This document shows positions 23,822 through 39,980 of a stretch of DNA of 41,511 nucleotides, in pieces. The notes below the pieces were generated by a model. That model saw only the letters and a program-made list of their open reading frames with translations, was not told where the DNA came from and did no database searches. The first letter of the stretch is position 1, and every line of letters starts with the position of its first letter. Origin of the DNA: a virus (Duplodnaviria; Heunggongvirae; Uroviricota; Caudoviricetes); IMG/VR virus record IMGVR_UViG_2802429229_000003, one strand, 5' to 3'. Position numbers and translations under genes: made by a program.

Positions 23822-24420
23822 TACGCAAACTCCAGTAACTGTGCGGCCACATTTTCGACTTCCTCCGGAGAGGAAAATTTACGGAACAGGATCCAGTTCC
23901 ACAGCACATTCAGTACAGATTTATAAACCTGCTGAAACTCGGTTTCGTCCATGTTCGCAAAAGCGATGGATTTCGCCAGACGCCCATGGCTACCGTCCGG
24001 ATAAAAATGTTCGGTGTAAAATCCAGCCTGAATGGTTACCCACTCGCGAAAAGCCTCAAACGACTTTAGCAATGCCGTATCCCGGGTTCTGCGTGTCGCA
24101 ACTGTATTCAGATATTGCTCTGCGGCATCACTCAGGGCTGGCGTGTGTTCCCGACCAACTGATTCGCACAGGTAATCAACGAAACCAGACAGCAGTTCTC
24201 GTTCGCGAGGCGTGATCGCCCCACCGACCGGAGTCCAGTAATCGAATCCCAGTTGCAGGAGTTTGAAAAAACGCTTGTGGAATGCGTAGTTACGCACACG
24301 CTTAAAGTCTGCGTGTATCCACTCACCTATTTTGATTTGATGCAGAAAATCGCAACTCTCCGGCGTCGCCGGGAGAAGTAAACCAGAAGAAGTTTGTTTG
24401 ACCAGTTGTATATGCGCCAT
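23821..24420 (-). CDS. nin-region hypothetical protein, 199 aa
   Basis: ORF in the delayed-early operon upstream of Q; no motif recognised. Confidence 0.5.
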   Translation of the reverse strand: MAHIQLVKQTSSGLLLPATPESCDFLHQIKIGEWIHADFKRVRNYAFHKRFFKLLQLGFDYWTPVGGAITPRERELLSGFVDYLCESVGREHTPALSDAAEQYLNTVATRRTRDTALLKSFEAFREWVTIQAGFYTEHFYPDGSHGRLAKSIAFANMDETEFQQVYKSVLNVLWNWILFRKFSSPEEVENVAAQLLEFA

Positions 24421-24694
24421 TTCTCAATCTCTCGATGGCGCAGTGCAGCAGATGCCAGTTGTTCAGGCTGACGTATAAAGTATAAATAAACTGGTTCCAG
24501 TGTAAAGCCCCCACATTGATGGAATAAAAATCAAACAATAGATTGCTGGGATAAAATACAACGCTTATTATTAAAAGCGGTTAGACAAATTAAATTTTAA
24601 TGTTATGCAAATCTGCCAGATCAGCATAATATCTCATTTGAAAACCGCTGAAATAACAATCCTATCAGGATTAATCATATTAAGGTGAGTAAAT

Positions 24695-24781
24695 ATGGAA
24701 AACAACAAATCTGCACATTACGCTCCTTTTTTATCTGTAATACTTTTTGTTTTTTGCTGTGTATGGGCATTATTTTTATAA
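24695..24781 (+). CDS. Candidate small hydrophobic peptide, 28 aa (MENNKSAHYAPFLSVILFVFCCVWALFL)
   Basis: ATG at 24695 preceded by AAGGUGAG RBS at 5-nt spacing; single hydrophobic helix; in an AT-rich intergenic region. Below the ORF track cutoff. Confidence 0.3.
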   Translation: MENNKSAHYAPFLSVILFVFCCVWALFL

Positions 24782-24858
24782 AAATATTCACAGATAAAAT
24801 AAACTCGCCGAATCAGGTTAAGTGTGGGTGCGTTGAGGATGCCTGACACATCAGAGGC

Positions 24859-24880
24859 GGCGAGGGATTTCTCCCTCGCC
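24859..24880 (-). other. Stable 9-bp GC-rich hairpin at the 3' end of the hok transcript
   Basis: GGCGAGGGA-uuuc-UCCCUCGCC, about 10 nt after the hok stop. Confidence 0.5.
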
Positions 24881-24889
24881 TGGTCACTC

Positions 24890-25045
24890 TTACTCCTCAG
24901 GTTCGTAAGCTGTGAAGACAGCGACCTCCGTCTGACCGGTTCGGATTCGCACCTCGCAGAGGTCTTTCCTCGTTACCAGTGCCGTCACTATGACGGTTAA
25001 ACAGATGACAATCAGTGCGACTAACATCGCCTTTTGCTGCTTCAT
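24890..25045 (-). CDS. hok: Hok/Gef-family type I toxin, 51 aa
   Basis: MKQQKAMLVALIVICLTVIVTALVTRKDLCEVRIRTGQTEVAVFTAYEPEE: N-terminal TM helix and conserved RKDLCEVRIRTGQTEVAVF core. Confidence 0.85.
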   Translation of the reverse strand: MKQQKAMLVALIVICLTVIVTALVTRKDLCEVRIRTGQTEVAVFTAYEPEE

Positions 25046-25102
25046 AGCCTGCTTCTCCTTGCCTTCCGGCGCGTAAGAGGCTAACCTACATGTGCAAAGC
25101 AT
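24890..25102 (-). CDS. mok-like in-frame upstream extension of hok, 70 aa
   Basis: In-frame ATG at 25102 gives MLCTCRLASYAPEGKEKQA then the Hok sequence, the same arrangement as chromosomal mok/hok loci. Confidence 0.5.
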   Translation of the reverse strand: MLCTCRLASYAPEGKEKQAMKQQKAMLVALIVICLTVIVTALVTRKDLCEVRIRTGQTEVAVFTAYEPEE

Positions 25103-25260
25103 GAAATTGGCCTCAGATTAATGTTAAGCGTCTTGCCGGACGCGTAATGTTATCTGGGGCTTTTCTCTATCTGCCGTTGGTGTTCATGCCCGAGGCAGAT
25201 AGCCTCAAGCACCCGCAGCAATTCTACTTAACCCCCGTCACCTCGCCAATATAAAATCAA

Positions 25261-25479
25261 TCAGAAAGGCGATCCATAAGAACAACAGCAAGACAATAAA
25301 TTGCCATTACAGCCGCAATAGCTAGCGCACATTTGAGAACCAGCACGACAACCTCCTGTATTGGGCGTACACCAGTCCTGATAAATATGAGGATGTCTCG
25401 TCAGTGATTCAATGCAACTATTGGGTATAGTTTCTGTGATTTTGTTCTGTAGAAATGGAACACAACAACCAGTCACCAC
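25261..25479 (-). CDS. Doubtful small Cys-rich ORF, about 72 aa (11 Cys)
   Basis: GTG at 25479 preceded by AAGGAAG; lies between the KAP terminator and the hok locus. Could be non-coding hok leader. Confidence 0.15.
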   Translation of the reverse strand: MVTGCCVPFLQNKITETIPNSCIESLTRHPHIYQDWCTPNTGGCRAGSQMCASYCGCNGNLLSCCCSYGSPF

Positions 25480-25640
25480 CAGCACTTCCTTAAATGCTCT
25501 AAGTCAGAAACAAGCCAACATTTTAGTCCGCTTTGAGCGAAGAGCGGACGCTCGCATCTGTCCCAACACACTGAGGGCTTCACGAACACCTAGGTGTACT
25601 CGTCAACTGGGAAAAAGTCAGATTATCTGCGTAAGTTTCA

Positions 25641-25672
25641 GCGTAAAAATTGGGCACTATAAAAGTGCCCAA
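25641..25672 (-). terminator. Intrinsic terminator of the KAP NTPase gene (9-bp stem plus U5)
   Basis: Minus strand UUGGGCACU-uuuau-AGUGCCCAA followed by UUUUUACGC, starting about 22 nt after the KAP stop. Confidence 0.6.
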
Positions 25673-25693
25673 ACTGTAGAAAAATACATAATG

Positions 25694-28600
25694 CTATGTA
25701 TCTGAGCCAAACATAGAGCGCCGCCTTGTTATTTTATAATAAGTGGGATTTTCATTATCCACCTCAAAATCAGAGAAGAAGTGGTTATCTCTTAATGCTG
25801 TTAATAAACTTTGATTAGTTGAATCAACTTCAATTTTAGGTTTGCCTCGCCCCAAAATTTTACTGAACTCCGATAAACCAAGCAGATCAAGATACTCTTT
25901 GCAAGTCGTCTTACTCAAATCCTTACCCGGCAACAAAGCGATTAGCAGTGCTATTTTATTCTGCATATTCAGTCCCTCTGCGACAAACAGGTTTTTTAGT
26001 AACGGTTCAGAAACATCATTAGGACTTGCTATCAATGCTGATATATCCTGTATTGCTCGACTCAAGATGAGCGACTGAGTAGAGGTTCCCCAAGTTTTAT
26101 AAGATGACGTCAAGATTAGAAGTTCATCTGGTTTAAAATTATTTTCTAAAATATAGTCATTAACGACCTGAGAGTAATTCTTACTATAAATAGCCAACGG
26201 AGTTTTAACAAACTCGAGTAGCTTAACTTTCAAATCATCATCAACTTTCCAAGAAAGTATTGATATAGCCTCATCCAAAATAAAGTTATCAATCGTCATT
26301 AATTCAACGTATGCCCTGATATTCTTATGAATATAATAGGAAAGTTGCTCTGAATAGTTATCTCGTATGAAATTAAGTGGCGCAACATTCATACGAATAA
26401 TATTTTTATCCACTAATATTTTGAACTTATCACTCGCGATATTACTAGCGCTAAAGGATGTTTTACAAATAATATTTAGTGAGCAAATTAATTTTTCATA
26501 TTTATCATTTGATAAATCATTACAGATAACAATCGATTTAAATAATTTACCTTTAAGCTCGTTATCAATATTAATATTTTGAAAATTCAGGTCTACATCA
26601 GTTCTATTGATAAATTCGATAAGTGAGTCATCCAGTCCATCAACATGTTCAAAATAAGAGACAATATTTTCCTCAGAGCACACTGCTCTATCTTTATCCA
26701 ACAAAGATGACCATAAAGATTCGCTCTCAACCTCACTCAGAGATGTCACGAAAGTTTGCAAAGCGTTTATATACTGGCCTTTTTGTTCATCAGATATTCC
26801 CTCATTATTAAGAACGGATAAAACAATGGATTCATCATCCACGATTGAACCATCACAACTAGATAAAACCATATCCAGATAGTCCCTAATATGGTTATTA
26901 ACATAACTAGCCAAGGGAGAATCAGGTTGTGACATCACTAGTGTATAGTTCTTATGGCGAATATCATCTTCACTATTAAGCGTGTAAACCTTACTCAGCA
27001 TTAAGGTCAGGTTGGAAAAATTAATATCATAAAGTGAATGCTGGTAAACCGCATCAAAGAGTACTTTATTTGCGTTTTCAAATTTAATACTGACAAAAGA
27101 GACGTTAAGCAACTTAAAACCACTAATTAATTTGTCAACCTTCGGTTCTGATATTGCTAAATAACCTGCCGAATCAGAGATGTAATCAGTCAGACAATCA
27201 TCAATATTAATGGCCTCGATGGCGTCATTGGCAGAATAATAAAACGTGCCTATAGAGTAGAGTTTAACCCAATCAGCAGAAAATTCACTCTCTGTCAGCG
27301 CATAAGAAAAAAACTCAGGCCACTGTGTATTTAATCGATTAATGAAGACAGGCTGAGCCCTCTCAGTTTCAAAGTAACCACGAATAAACTCAACTCTTCT
27401 ATCTTTTCTTAGTTGTTTGAATAAACGTTTTATTAAGTTTACCTGGGCTGGCGTTTGAAGCAGATAAGCTAATAAATCAAAATTAAGCGCCTCTTCCTGT
27501 TCAAAATCCACTTCTCGAAGGCGGGCAACGACCAGCTTGGGGTTCTTGAGTTGATAAGTGAACTCTTTGCCTTTTTGATCGGTAATGCTGCGTAAAAACA
27601 TCTTATCAATTCGACTCAGGCTATTTTCATAAAAATAGGTCATATAGTCGGTATAGGTTTCATCAATATAACCATCACGAATAAGGTATTTAAGCAAGTC
27701 AAAATACTCACTGCTTTTTATTTCATTAAAGTCTCTTTCCTCTCCAATTTCATTGGTATAGGTGAGTTTAAATATTTCATCAATGTTTTCTCTAGTTATT
27801 ACTTCTTTAAGTCTTTTGTTTCTAAAATCAACCAAACTTTCTCTTGATCTTGATATAAGCTCATTAATTTCTTCTATTTTACCATTAAATTTATTTTCAA
27901 CACTTTCTTTTCTAGCCGCCCTTCTCTTTGCTATATCAGCTTTCTCAGCCTGATTATAGTGAGGATGATTATTATATCTAGATAATTCCTTATCGTATAT
28001 AGCATCAACCTCCTGACTAGAGTTGAGTATTTCATCATTGATTGCCTCAATCTCTTTTTTTCTATCTCTAATATCTTTTTCTATTTTCTTTATTTCTTCA
28101 ATAATAAGGTTGTCTTTTTCACTAAATATGGTATAAACCATACCTTGATTAAGTTGCAACTCACTAAAATCTCTTGGGAAAATATTCTTATAGGCAATAA
28201 TGGCCAACATTTTATTACAGTCAAGTTCTGTCGTGTTTAATTTGTTATAATAAATTTGAAATTCGTTATAAATATTCTTCAATATTCTCATATCATCAAT
28301 ATATAAAGACATCCCTTGTAGAAATCTTTCATTGAACAACTTGAGAATACCACCACCATCAAAATGTGTGATAAACTGATCGTAAGAGTTAGAACTATCA
28401 ACAACAGGAATAACTGGAATGATATAATCAAAGAATTTGGTTCTATCCTTCGAAATGAAGATATCATCACGAAGCAAGTAAATAAAACGTAACGTCGATT
28501 TCTTGTGCCCTGCTGTGTCCCGTTGAATATTAACCAGTCTGTTAACCTCATGAAGACGTTCAAAGATGTTATTACTATTAAAACGGTCCATGTCTTCAAA

Positions 28601-29326
28601 AACAATGGCATCAGCATCAACGTTCTCGAAAAGGTACAATACTTCATTTAAATATCTATCGAAATAAGACTCGTTACTTTCTTCAAAAATCTCTATTTCA
28701 TTACCCTGTAAATTTATTTTCTTAAGAACATTACGATTCTTTTGGGTTTTTATTAACTTGTAAATGAAAATACAAGATAGGATAGTACATATAAACCCAC
28801 TAATTAAAAGCGTATCGTATTTAGTTGATAATGTAAGTAGTGTCTTTATATTACCTTCAGATAAAAGTGAAACAAACTTTTCCCACTTATTAAATAGCGT
28901 GATATGTAGTATCATAGCGATAAATAACACCGTAAAGATGGTGTTTATCACAATGTTGTTAGTTTTTATTTTTTTCTTTACTTTAAAATGTGTCTGGGGA
29001 ATATCATCAGCATTAATTTGGTGAATTAACTGGTTAAGAACTTTACCTTCTAACGCGGTTTCATTTATATCTTTACTTGGTTCATTAGTTTCAGCTTCCT
29101 CAATCGATCTGAAATGAGCAAGTGAGATATGAACAAACTTTATATTTGAATGACTTTTCTTATAGGATTCGATAAGACTACTTTTTCCTGCGCTATATTG
29201 CCCTGATATCGCAACATTTTTTAGATCGTTATTGGCAAAAACAAAATCTATCGCATTTTTATATACACCCAGCTCAACATCGCTGAACGGCGTTAACTTT
29301 TGAAATTTATAGCTATCATCACTCAT
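25694..29326 (-). CDS. KAP-family P-loop NTPase, 1210 aa, with two transmembrane helices inserted between Walker A and Walker B; AT-rich moron
   Basis: Walker A GQYSAGKSS (aa 42-50, nt 29177-29203); hydrophobic helices at aa ~123-145 and ~172-192; Walker B DAIVFEDMDR (aa 239-248, nt 28583-28612); about 950-aa C-terminal region with a coiled-coil-like stretch. RBS GGGAAGGGA before ATG at 29326. Sampled lines about 25-30% GC. Confidence 0.8.
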   Translation of the reverse strand: MSDDSYKFQKLTPFSDVELGVYKNAIDFVFANNDLKNVAISGQYSAGKSSLIESYKKSHSNIKFVHISLAHFRSIEEAETNEPSKDINETALEGKVLNQLIHQINADDIPQTHFKVKKKIKTNNIVINTIFTVLFIAMILHITLFNKWEKFVSLLSEGNIKTLLTLSTKYDTLLISGFICTILSCIFIYKLIKTQKNRNVLKKINLQGNEIEIFEESNESYFDRYLNEVLYLFENVDADAIVFEDMDRFNSNNIFERLHEVNRLVNIQRDTAGHKKSTLRFIYLLRDDIFISKDRTKFFDYIIPVIPVVDSSNSYDQFITHFDGGGILKLFNERFLQGMSLYIDDMRILKNIYNEFQIYYNKLNTTELDCNKMLAIIAYKNIFPRDFSELQLNQGMVYTIFSEKDNLIIEEIKKIEKDIRDRKKEIEAINDEILNSSQEVDAIYDKELSRYNNHPHYNQAEKADIAKRRAARKESVENKFNGKIEEINELISRSRESLVDFRNKRLKEVITRENIDEIFKLTYTNEIGEERDFNEIKSSEYFDLLKYLIRDGYIDETYTDYMTYFYENSLSRIDKMFLRSITDQKGKEFTYQLKNPKLVVARLREVDFEQEEALNFDLLAYLLQTPAQVNLIKRLFKQLRKDRRVEFIRGYFETERAQPVFINRLNTQWPEFFSYALTESEFSADWVKLYSIGTFYYSANDAIEAINIDDCLTDYISDSAGYLAISEPKVDKLISGFKLLNVSFVSIKFENANKVLFDAVYQHSLYDINFSNLTLMLSKVYTLNSEDDIRHKNYTLVMSQPDSPLASYVNNHIRDYLDMVLSSCDGSIVDDESIVLSVLNNEGISDEQKGQYINALQTFVTSLSEVESESLWSSLLDKDRAVCSEENIVSYFEHVDGLDDSLIEFINRTDVDLNFQNINIDNELKGKLFKSIVICNDLSNDKYEKLICSLNIICKTSFSASNIASDKFKILVDKNIIRMNVAPLNFIRDNYSEQLSYYIHKNIRAYVELMTIDNFILDEAISILSWKVDDDLKVKLLEFVKTPLAIYSKNYSQVVNDYILENNFKPDELLILTSSYKTWGTSTQSLILSRAIQDISALIASPNDVSEPLLKNLFVAEGLNMQNKIALLIALLPGKDLSKTTCKEYLDLLGLSEFSKILGRGKPKIEVDSTNQSLLTALRDNHFFSDFEVDNENPTYYKITRRRSMFGSDT

Positions 29327-29732: not shown

Positions 29733-30149
29733 CTATAAATACCGAAGATTTCCTTGATAAAATGCCAGTACACGTTTCATAACTTCACTCTTCCGGCACT
29801 CGCGACAGATTATGTTCTGACGCCTGTCATAGCGGCGTATTTCTCCGTCTGGTAATGACCAGATAAGGTCAGGATCAACCACAACCGTTTTTTTCACCTT
29901 TGCCCTGGATAGTTTTTTGCGGGCGTTTTTCCAATCCTTACGAGCCTGTTCAGACGGGAATAACCCATAGCCAGAGTTGTATACATCGCCACTGGCAACC
30001 AACTCTCTGGCAAGAATGCTCATCAGATATCTTGTCGCACCTGTCTTGGCCTCCAGTTGCCTTAACGTCTCGCGCCCACTCTGGCGTACCAACTCAACAA
30101 CCTGCTCCTTAATTTTTTCACGCTCTTCCTGTGTAAAAACTTTTGCCAT
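29733..30149 (-). CDS. Hypothetical protein, 138 aa, possible winged-helix DNA-binding protein
   Basis: ATG at 30149 with GGAGG RBS; no counterpart recalled in K-12 Rac. Confidence 0.5.
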   Translation of the reverse strand: MAKVFTQEEREKIKEQVVELVRQSGRETLRQLEAKTGATRYLMSILARELVASGDVYNSGYGLFPSEQARKDWKNARKKLSRAKVKKTVVVDPDLIWSLPDGEIRRYDRRQNIICRECRKSEVMKRVLAFYQGNLRYL

Positions 30150-30164
30150 AAGCGCCTCCGGCAA

Positions 30165-39583: not shown

Positions 39584-39778
39584 ATGAGATATGACAATGT
39601 TAAACCATGTCCATTTTGTGGTTGTCCATCAGTAACGGTGAAAGCCATTTCAGGATATTACCGAGCGAAGTGTAACGGATGCGAATCCCGAACCGGTTAT
39701 GGTGGAAGTGAAAAAGAAGCACTCGAAAGATGGAATAAACGAACCACTGGAAATAATAATGGAGGTGTTCATGTATAA
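39584..39778 (+). CDS. ralR: Restriction alleviation protein Lar (RalR), 64 aa
   Basis: MRYDNVKPCPFCGCPSVTVKAISGYYRAKCNGCESRTGYGGSEKEALERWNKR; zinc-ribbon CxxC...CxxC. Confidence 0.7.
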   Translation: MRYDNVKPCPFCGCPSVTVKAISGYYRAKCNGCESRTGYGGSEKEALERWNKRTTGNNNGGVHV

Positions 39779-39980
39779 AATTACCGCCACTATTGAAAAG
39801 GAAGGTGGCACTCCTACTAACTGGACAAGATATTCAAAATCTAAACTAACGAAATCAGAATGCGAAAAAATGCTCTCAGGTAAAAAAGAAGCAGGCGTTT
39901 CCAGAGAGCAGAAAGTAAAACTGATAAATTTTAATTGCGAGAAACTTCAGTCCTCGAGAATTGCATTGTATTCAAATTAA
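39771..39980 (+). CDS. ydaC: YdaC-like protein, 69 aa
   Basis: ATG at 39771 overlapping the lar stop; MYKITATIEKEGGTPTNWTRYSKSKLTKSECEKMLSGKKEAGVSREQKVKL... Confidence 0.6.
   Translation: MYKITATIEKEGGTPTNWTRYSKSKLTKSECEKMLSGKKEAGVSREQKVKLINFNCEKLQSSRIALYSN

Follow-up and report, generated by a model that had tools for sequence, protein, structure and literature searches.

A probably intact hok/mok/sok type I toxin–antitoxin cassette of the hokD/hokW subtype in a Rac-like lambdoid prophage

Introduction

The mechanism of the hok/sok locus of plasmid R1 has been summarized in PMC9841398, where the alternative pairing of tac, ucb and the mok Shine–Dalgarno (SD) region in R1 hok mRNA is also described. 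Among the chromosomal relatives, hokD of K-12 is regarded in the published view as inactivated by rearrangement, and hokC carries a Tyr-to-Cys editing site (PMC12214031). The same article, in a passage citing Pedersen & Gerdes 1999, places hokC at a fixed chromosomal site, interrupted by an IS in K-12 and not phage-borne. HokD was toxic in the assays of 10.1101/2025.08.07.668861, and hok is already known from published work to be enriched in prophages.

In the present work, a hok locus was analyzed in a stretch of 41,511 nucleotides, which as a whole is referred to as the window. The locus is very probably an intact hok/mok/sok type I toxin–antitoxin cassette of the hokD/hokW subtype, carried as cargo by a Rac-like lambdoid prophage of E. 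coli and predicted from its sequence to follow an R1-type mechanism. It is already known, as hokD and, in phage 933W, as hokW/mokW/sokW, and nothing about it is novel.

Sampling and occurrence of the cassette

The sample comprised 80 IMG/VR prophage or phage loci with a near-identical HokD, 72 of which had alignable full-length cassettes. Together with the copy in the window, these yielded 66 unique cassette sequences, to which the conservation counts below refer. The cassette was about 430 bp long; when the IMG/VR loci were compared, homology typically extended over window positions 25232..24801, and the flanks diverged.

A 751-nt query around the locus was covered to at least 80% in 1454 of 5426 complete E. 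coli genomes, with the gene annotated as hokD (RefSeq). The cassette was also present in 109 phage records, including 933W, VT2-Sakai, many Stx phages, mEp460 and "phage Rac". Proteins identical to Hok occurred on at least 998 contigs, and those identical to the 70-aa Mok on 716. It was evident that the cassette is one of the commonest accessory cassettes among lambdoid prophages and not unusual.

The hok and mok coding region

The following features were assigned to the coding region and its ribosome-binding sites.

24890..25102, minus strand: mok frame of 70 codons, in frame with hok and with a common stop (from the ORF list)
24890..25045, minus strand: hok toxin gene of the hokD/hokW type, 51 aa (Pfam HOK_GEF; the identical locus is named hokD in RefSeq)
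25060..25055, minus strand: hok SD, AAGGAG
25110..25117, minus strand: mok SD region, UCUGAGGC, with GAGG 8–9 nt ahead of the mok ATG

The mok ATG lies at 25102, the internal ATG at 25045 starts Hok, and the stop codon occupies 24892..24890, all on the minus strand. The 51-aa Hok sequence, MKQQKAMLVALIVICLTVIVTALVTRKDLCEVRIRTGQTEVAVFTAYEPEE, matched the Pfam family HOK_GEF (PF01848) with 82.4 bits (cut-off 22, E 1.6e-23) over profile positions 1–42 of 42. A preliminary description of this DNA had proposed precisely this 51-aa Hok with an in-frame 70-aa mok, and was right, as the Pfam match and the Rfam RF01794 match of 111.4 bits confirm. The NCBIfam Hok subfamily models stayed under their cut-off for this protein (49 vs 73); RefSeq calls the identical protein HokD. 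A PADLOC search gave no match for Hok or Mok.

A chance ORF, or a Hok-like similarity without biological meaning, can be given a negligible probability. It has the small size of the ORF in its favor and nothing else, as opposed to E-values of 1.6e-23 in Pfam and 1e-24 in Rfam, an exact protein found on about 1000 contigs, and annotations as hokD or hokW in RefSeq and GenBank.

Across the 66 unique cassettes, the sole difference within Hok was isoleucine or valine at residue 9. The mok ATG was kept in all 66, and the mok frame comprised 70 codons in frame with hok in 59; in the other seven, mok was a 19-codon frame whose UGA overlapped the hok AUG. The CTGAGG of the mok SD was conserved in nearly all cassettes. 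As read from the sequence, the overlap of mok and hok would allow coupled translation, given a mok ATG with an upstream GAGG and a shared frame.

The hok mRNA and its folding elements

The elements assigned to the hok transcript were as follows.

25221..25249, minus strand: hok promoter, −35 TTGGCG (25249..25244), 17-nt spacer, −10 TAGAAT (25226..25221), with 9/12 matches in a promoter scan
24826..25214, minus strand: full-length hok mRNA of about 389 nt, from the putative +1 at G25214 to the fbi end (Rfam position 1 falls on 25214; both ends predicted)
25202..25214, minus strand: tac element, GGGUGCUUGAGGC, the mRNA 5′ end, invariant in 66/66 cassettes
25186..25196, minus strand: ucb, or anti-SD box, GCCUCGGGCAU, pairing with tac in the truncated RNA
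24859..24880, minus strand: post-stop 9-bp G+C hairpin, GGCGAGGGA-GAAA-UCCCUCGCC, present in the sequence and in both the full-length and truncated folds
24826..24838, minus strand: fbi element, CCUCAACGCACCC, complementary to tac (pairing and conservation)
24795..24819, minus strand: degraded remnant of an intrinsic terminator after fbi, AACCTGATTCGGCGAGTTTATTTTAT, dG −2.0

The −10 hexamer TAGAAT was found in 60 of the 66 unique cassettes. A TAnnnT box located 6–7 nt ahead of a conserved 5′ end was present in the hok loci of Escherichia, Kluyvera, Serratia, Pantoea, Atlantibacter, Franconibacter, Citrobacter and others; its recurrence at this place in many genera supports the proposed +1 at 25214.

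The leader (25214..25040) matched Rfam RF01794 with 111.4 bits (gathering threshold 59, E 1e-24) over model positions 1–157 of 157. The match lay on the hok-sense strand and covered 175 nt through the hok AUG. As matched here, RF01794 describes the hok leader and not the 64–71-nt Sok. The Rfam scan of 24400..25750, evaluated by E-value, returned RF01794 alone.

Although RF01794 is labeled "sok", its match was rejected as the antitoxin gene, as it is in the hok sense and ends at the hok AUG.

The 389-nt RNA (25214..24826) folded with a minimum free energy (MFE) of −157.9 kcal/mol (z = −6.4) and with both ends paired, the first 12 nt, belonging to tac, being joined to CCUCAACGCACCC at 24838..24826. 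The duplex between tac and the tail reached −21.5 kcal/mol, compared with −13.2 ± 2.2 for dinucleotide-shuffled tails, and only 2 of 2000 shuffles attained the observed value. A 17-nt segment containing fbi (GCATCCTCAACGCACCC, 24842..24826) was identical in 58 of the 66 cassettes.

Because tac never varies and fbi hardly does among the hokD cassettes, covariation was sought in other hok subfamilies, which were gathered by scanning genome contigs for a conserved core pattern. Among at least five subfamily variants from many genera, tac and fbi covaried, and the 3′ end of fbi was found 360–399 nt from the +1 throughout the subfamilies compared. The covarying pairs included the following.

tac GGCGCUU with fbi AAGCGCC
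tac GGGCGCCUGAGGC with fbi GCCUUCAGGCGCCC
tac GGGUGCUCUGGAU with fbi AUCCAUGAGCACCC
tac GGGUGCUUGAGAC with fbi UCUCAACGCACCC

When the last 29 nt were removed, tac formed an 11-bp stem with ucb in the truncated fold. The duplex of ucb with the mok SD (UCUGAGGC, 25117..25110) was calculated at −13.5 kcal/mol, and compensatory changes were observed in the ucb region of Kluyvera and Serratia relatives.

The full-length MFE structure sequestered the mok SD with GCCCC and not with ucb, unlike the ucb–SDmok pairing of the literature, so that ucb is a candidate partner of the mok SD in the closed state.

The 9-bp hairpin at 24880..24859 had been recognized in the preliminary description and does exist. 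Its placement there at the 3′ end of the transcript did not hold for the full-length mRNA, which by homology continues to fbi at 24838..24826. The hairpin showed compensatory variants among the cassettes and, in the alignment to the R1-type locus, corresponded to the hairpin GGCGGGCGCAGGCCCGCC. From its sequence and position, it probably protects the 3′ end of the processed mRNA, near which it is located, and plausibly serves as the processing stop.

Downstream of fbi, at least 45 of the 66 cassettes carried an intact terminator, AACCCGCTTCGGCGGGTTTTT (AACCCGC-TTCG-GCGGGUU followed by a U-run), with dG from −11 to −16. The corresponding sequence in the window, in full AACCUGAUUCGGCGAGUUUAUUUUAU, reached only −2.0, and the degraded variant was common to RefSeq strains with the same DUF1367 neighbor; E. 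coli TUM9757 and HS30-1 likewise carry it. This is the one sign of decay in the window cassette. The primary 3′ end of hok may differ here because the terminator is degraded; hok itself would remain translatable.

Alignment to characterized hok/sok loci, which had been called for earlier, located tac, fbi, ucb, the mok SD and the hok SD, all intact and conserved. Decay of regulatory elements such that hok becomes untranslatable, named in the preliminary description as a reason to abandon its reading, was not found, the terminator after fbi being the sole decayed element.

Sok antisense RNA

Two features were placed on the opposite strand.

25059..25087, plus strand: sok promoter, −35 TTGCCT (25059..25064), 17-nt spacer, −10 TAACCT (25082..25087), read from the sequence
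25094..25164, plus strand: predicted Sok antisense RNA of 71 nt, +1 at G25094, to which the 933W sokW misc_RNA (AF125520.1) maps exactly

Whether sok is present had been left undecided at first, and alignment to the R1-type locus and to 933W sokW now points to a gene with a promoter and a terminator. A generic sigma-70 scan missed the promoter, whose −10 TAACCT agrees with the consensus at 3 of 6 positions; it was placed by homology to the R1-type locus, where TTGCGC-17-TATCCT occupies the same position, and to the 933W sokW annotation. A weak sok −10 is the norm in this family. Both promoter hexamers were unchanged in 53 of the 66 unique cassettes.

The predicted Sok folded with −33.1 kcal/mol (z = −5.8) and ended at 25164 in a hairpin followed by UUUU (GGGGCUUUU). 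Its 5′ tail is complementary to mok codons 1–3, with the mok SD falling inside the hairpin that follows. The putative Sok gene, with its own promoter and terminator, thus overlaps the mok initiation region. Promoter, hairpin and U-run were conserved among the cassettes. The 13-nt 5′ end of Sok was hypervariable, with at least 10 variants among the 66 unique cassettes, a pattern that would fit a diversifying recognition sequence.

The presence, conservation, complementarity and covariation of the cassette elements were thereby documented for every element, and all sequence-level features of the family that were tested were found, except for the precise pairing of the mok SD in the closed state.

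The cassette could still be a non-functional relic comparable to the chromosomal hok loci of K-12, its parts intact and its killing or regulation lost. The degraded terminator and the weak sok −10 can be cited for this reading, as can the 5′-truncated hokD of K-12 and the inactivity of other chromosomal hok loci in post-segregational killing (PSK) assays. On the latter point, a preprint summary states that chromosomal hokA, hokB and hokC gave neither post-segregational killing nor activation by rifampicin. The window, however, retains every regulatory element, unlike K-12 hokD. An invariant tac, a fbi segment identical in 58 of 66 cassettes, a mok ATG kept in 66 of 66 and a Hok with one conservative I/V polymorphism are accompanied by flanks that diverge freely around the conserved cassette, as expected of a module that is under purifying selection throughout. 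A relic is accordingly considered quite improbable, and an intact cassette remains the preferred interpretation.

Putative TadA editing site

One further feature was assigned within hok.

24904..24907, minus strand: UACG at the Tyr47 codon, putative TadA A-to-I site (Tyr to Cys)

The mRNAs of hokC, hokD and hokE are edited from A to I by TadA at this tyrosine, which is thereby changed to cysteine (PMC12214031; 10.1101/2025.08.07.668861), and the logic of the editing motif is given in 10.1101/2025.08.07.668861. In the MFE structure of the window RNA, codon 47 (UAC) and the following G fell within the loop CUUACGAAC, which CAG and CUG close to form a small hairpin. The 13-nt segment containing UACG, TTACGAACCTGAG, was invariant in all 66 cassettes. 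Judged from these features, Tyr47 UAC-G appears to be of the hokC/D/E type, with a loop resembling tRNA-Arg2 and the C-terminal Cys position.

Editing of K-12 hokD mRNA was reported at 6% (PMC12214031). This low level, the 3/6 match of the sok −10, the degraded terminator, the GCCCC pairing of the mok SD in the full-length fold and the negative results for chromosomal hokA, hokB and hokC count against the explanation favored here.

Proposed mechanism and significance

By homology, we infer transcription and processing of the hok mRNA, the action of Sok, the toxicity of this allele, and a biological role in prophage maintenance and/or abortive infection. In the model adopted from R1, a weak constitutive promoter would yield the hok mRNA as a stable transcript of about 389 nt. 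In this RNA the 5′ tac would pair with the 3′ fbi and the mok ribosome site would be sequestered, so that neither translation nor Sok binding takes place. The 3′ end would then be slowly trimmed to the post-stop hairpin, with loss of fbi, after which tac would pair with ucb and make the ribosome site of mok accessible together with the target of Sok.

In a cell that retains the prophage and transcribes normally, the short-lived 71-nt Sok would pair across the mok start and block mok translation; hok translation would be blocked too because it is coupled to that of mok, and the Sok/mRNA duplex would be degraded. If Sok synthesis stopped, either through loss of the element or through transcriptional shut-off, the stored mRNA would be translated, and Hok would enter the inner membrane and kill or arrest the cell. 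TadA-dependent recoding of Tyr47 UAC-G to cysteine may act as a further gate on toxicity.

With coordinates for the promoter, tac, ucb, Sok, the editing site and fbi, the annotation of the locus as a complete cassette is settled. The element-by-element map could help in testing the activity of prophage-borne hok/sok loci, and likewise the variable defense-gene slot upstream.

Prophage context and the variable slot

The surrounding DNA had been described as Rac-like, which agrees with the genes found: an integrase, recE, the RalA sRNA, replication genes of the ydaU/ydaV type, and DUF1627 and DUF977 genes, together with the 1210-aa NTPase, hok/sok, DUF1367, YbcO, a DUF1133 (Q-like) gene, lysis genes and trkG. 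The proposed NTPase neighbor was likewise recovered upstream of hok, as a 1210-aa P-loop NTPase of the YobI family (Pfam YobI-ATPase, E 1.7e-122). It matched PADLOC Tmn with E 2e-66 over aa 9–439 of 1210 alone, and had no NCBIfam match. By these matches it is a Tmn-like NTPase and a candidate defense gene in a variable cargo slot. The small accessory island between replication and nin/Q genes, suggested at the outset, found support in this slot.

The interval from DUF977 to hok was variable: 79 IMG/VR loci showed 59 different arrangements of three ORFs. The gene immediately upstream was a DUF551 phage gene in 30 of the 79 loci and QueH in 6, and strain TUM9757 carried a DUF262/AAA-ATPase trio in the slot. 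PADLOC-positive genes were found in 10 loci, namely PD-Lambda-2, Kiwa KwaB, Septu PtuA/PtuB, PDC-S15, PDC-S39, a PD-T4-6-like kinase and Hp2/Hp3; the scan covered 20 cluster representatives, and the loci are not independent of one another.

It is possible, though doubtful, that the main function of the cassette is abortive infection against phages, in which it would either cooperate with the adjacent Tmn-like NTPase or stabilize it as part of a prophage defense islet. A phage shutting off host transcription would cause Sok to decay, and Hok would kill the cell before the phage cycle is completed. The Tmn match of 2e-66 is consistent with this, as are PD-Lambda-2, Kiwa, Septu, PDC-S15, PDC-S39 and the PD-T4-6-like kinase in the slot elsewhere, and the exclusion of T4 that Pecota & Wood 1996 state for R1 hok/sok on a high-copy plasmid. 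Genome-wide, however, hok was near defense systems in 12% of cases vs 9.4% expected, which is not an enrichment (10.1101/2025.08.07.668861). The DUF551 and QueH neighbors also argue against it, and the recurrence of the cassette with many unrelated neighbors suggests an independent module. A functional link between hok and defense is unproven, and the cassette is preferably read as prophage cargo with an R1-type mechanism.

A broader reading of the slot was also considered. The hokD/sokW cassette, often accompanied by a conserved upstream stretch of about 320 bp (containing a 29-aa hydrophobic ORF, for which nothing was found in Pfam or NCBIfam), might form the fixed right border of a cargo-exchange hotspot, with hok/sok functionally tied to the cargo; this we hold to be unlikely. 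If true, the hotspot would span the DUF977 gene to the nin/Q genes in Rac-like and other lambdoid prophages and would swap anti-phage systems, Tmn-like here and Septu, Kiwa, PD-Lambda-2, PD-T4-6-like, PDC-S15 and PDC-S39 elsewhere. The role of hok/sok would then be that of an addiction element keeping the cargo, or of a back-up abortive-infection switch. The published genome-wide analysis would miss such a link because all hok paralogues were pooled. A search of the literature for a described lambdoid defense hotspot beside hok returned nothing specific.

Comparison with known systems

The hokC (gef)/mokC/sokC locus of K-12 presumably resembles the window locus in having an in-frame mok extension of about 69–70 codons, and we take its Hok core, RKDLCEV.IRTGQTEVAVFTAYE, to be closely related.

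The R1 hok/sok (parB) locus and the window had the same order and spacing of elements and the same folding logic. In both, the −10 box stands 6–7 nt before a 5′ end of the form GG(G/C)..GCUUGAGGC. Downstream of this end come ucb and the Sok hairpin, then AGCCUCUUAC..CAAGGAGAAG and the post-stop hairpin, with fbi lying about 390 nt from the +1. The tac/fbi pair GGCGCUU/AAGCGCC in R1 is replaced by GGGUGCUU/AACGCACCC in the window, which is a compensatory difference. The proteins, in contrast, were strongly divergent, with a different N-terminal half; in R1 Hok, the Tyr at the corresponding position is encoded in the DNA, and the C-terminus is not the same either. In addition, mok is out of frame with hok in R1 and in frame in the window, and the R1 locus is carried by a plasmid whereas the window locus is in a prophage.

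As stated in the preliminary description, K-12 hokD (relF) lies beside relBE in the cryptic prophage Qin and is near-identical to the window Hok. The two proteins were one residue apart (V9 in the window, I9 in K-12), and the coding region, post-stop hairpin and fbi were homologous. Homology starts only about 20 nt before the hok ATG, with relE upstream, and K-12 hokD therefore has no hok promoter, tac, ucb, mok start or sok. It retains the intact terminator that is degraded in the window. The K-12 reference gene is thus a truncated derivative of such a prophage cassette; truncation of the Qin type, with homology from just upstream of the hok ATG, was seen in 2 of the 80 IMG/VR loci. Linkage to relBE as in Qin was rejected for the window, relBE being missing from its ORF list, as had been noted before.

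The hokW/mokW/sokW locus of Stx2 phage 933W (AF125520.1) showed about 93% nucleotide identity to the window over the cassette of about 415 nt. The promoter, tac, ucb, Sok hairpin, sok promoter, hok SD and fbi were identical. Differences were found in a few C-terminal residues of Hok and in the region of the Sok 5′ end and mok codons 2–4, which reads CTTTGC in the window and CTGAAC in 933W, so that the recognition sequence may differ. The cassette is located near the right end in 933W and between the DUF977 and DUF1367 genes in the window. Both loci carry the same 70-codon in-frame mok, annotated as mokW in 933W, and a cassette of the 933W type is also present in VT2-Sakai and other Stx phages.

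Variation in the Sok 5' tail and in mok

Among the 66 unique hokD cassettes, which include the window copy, the 13 nucleotides at 25088-25100, which specify the 5' tail of the antisense RNA Sok and correspond to mok codons 1-5, occurred in at least ten variants. The promoter and the hairpin flanking this segment were conserved in the same cassettes. This pattern suggests that Sok-hok recognition has diversified among co-resident paralogues.

Variation also extended to the mok reading frame. In seven IMG/VR cassettes (L024, L033, L036, L050, L055, L065 and L069), the 70-codon in-frame mok was replaced by an out-of-frame mok of 19 codons, whose UGA stop overlaps the hok AUG (AUGA). This is a putative different coupling geometry inside one subfamily.

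Sequences flanking the hok cassette

Two features were located at the borders of the cassette:

24795-24819, minus strand: degraded intrinsic terminator 3' of fbi, with three substitutions
25257-25346, minus strand: hydrophobic 29-aa ORF, MLVLKCALAIAAVMAIYCLAVVLMDRLSD, which starts with GTG and is preceded by a strong SD (AGGAGG) at 25352-25357

The dG of the terminator was -2.0 in the window, compared with -11 to -16 in most hokD cassettes, and the degraded variant was common to the RefSeq strains TUM9757 and HS30-1. On the other side, the 29-aa ORF ends 8 nt upstream of the hok -35 element. At least 14 IMG/VR loci differing in upstream cargo have kept it, the changes among them being synonymous or conservative, and 146 contigs carried it under the label 'hypothetical'. 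Pfam and NCBIfam searches returned no family match for the ORF, and it may encode a small membrane protein or, alternatively, a second small toxin.

Cargo slot and the YobI-family NTPase

Upstream of the cassette, the following were delimited:

DUF977 gene (29733-30164) to hok cassette: variable cargo slot
25694-29326, minus strand: YobI-family P-loop NTPase, 1210 aa, with hydrophobic segments C-terminal to the Walker A region

The slot showed 59 distinct architectures in 79 loci from the set L005-L084. Among its contents were Septu, Kiwa, PD-Lambda-2, PDC-S15, PDC-S39, a PD-T4-6-like kinase, a KAP-like NTPase, DUF5677, QueH, and MFS and ModA-like genes.

The 1210-aa NTPase matched the PADLOC defence-system model Tmn (2e-66) over aa 9-439 only, and no family was assigned to the approximately 770 C-terminal residues by Pfam, PADLOC or NCBIfam searches. 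It was found in none of the 80 IMG/VR hokD loci; among complete E. coli genomes, about a dozen carry it.

The same arrangement of YobI-NTPase and hok was observed in E. coli strain 1-62 (L085, 11112-11661). Its hok is annotated as a truncated CDS of 41 aa, followed by an opposite-strand DUF1971 gene; this copy is a decayed version of the NTPase-hok locus of the window.

R1-type hok loci on other contigs and the RalA sRNA

The genome-contig scan also returned R1-type hok loci on short contigs (L101, L105, L149, L156 and L158) labelled Collinsella, Xanthomonas, Ferruginibacter, Streptomyces and Oscillibacter. In the two checked, L149 and L158, the 5' region was identical to the IncFII R1-type reference, and these contigs are probably plasmid or E. 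coli contamination of the assemblies.

One further RNA was identified in the window:

39777-39955, minus strand: RalA sRNA (Rfam RF02694, 225 bits, full length)

It faces an ORF on the opposite strand (39699-39980, plus strand). In Rac, RalA serves as the antitoxin in the type I toxin-antitoxin system RalR/RalA, and the prophage of the window therefore contains a second RNA-antitoxin system.
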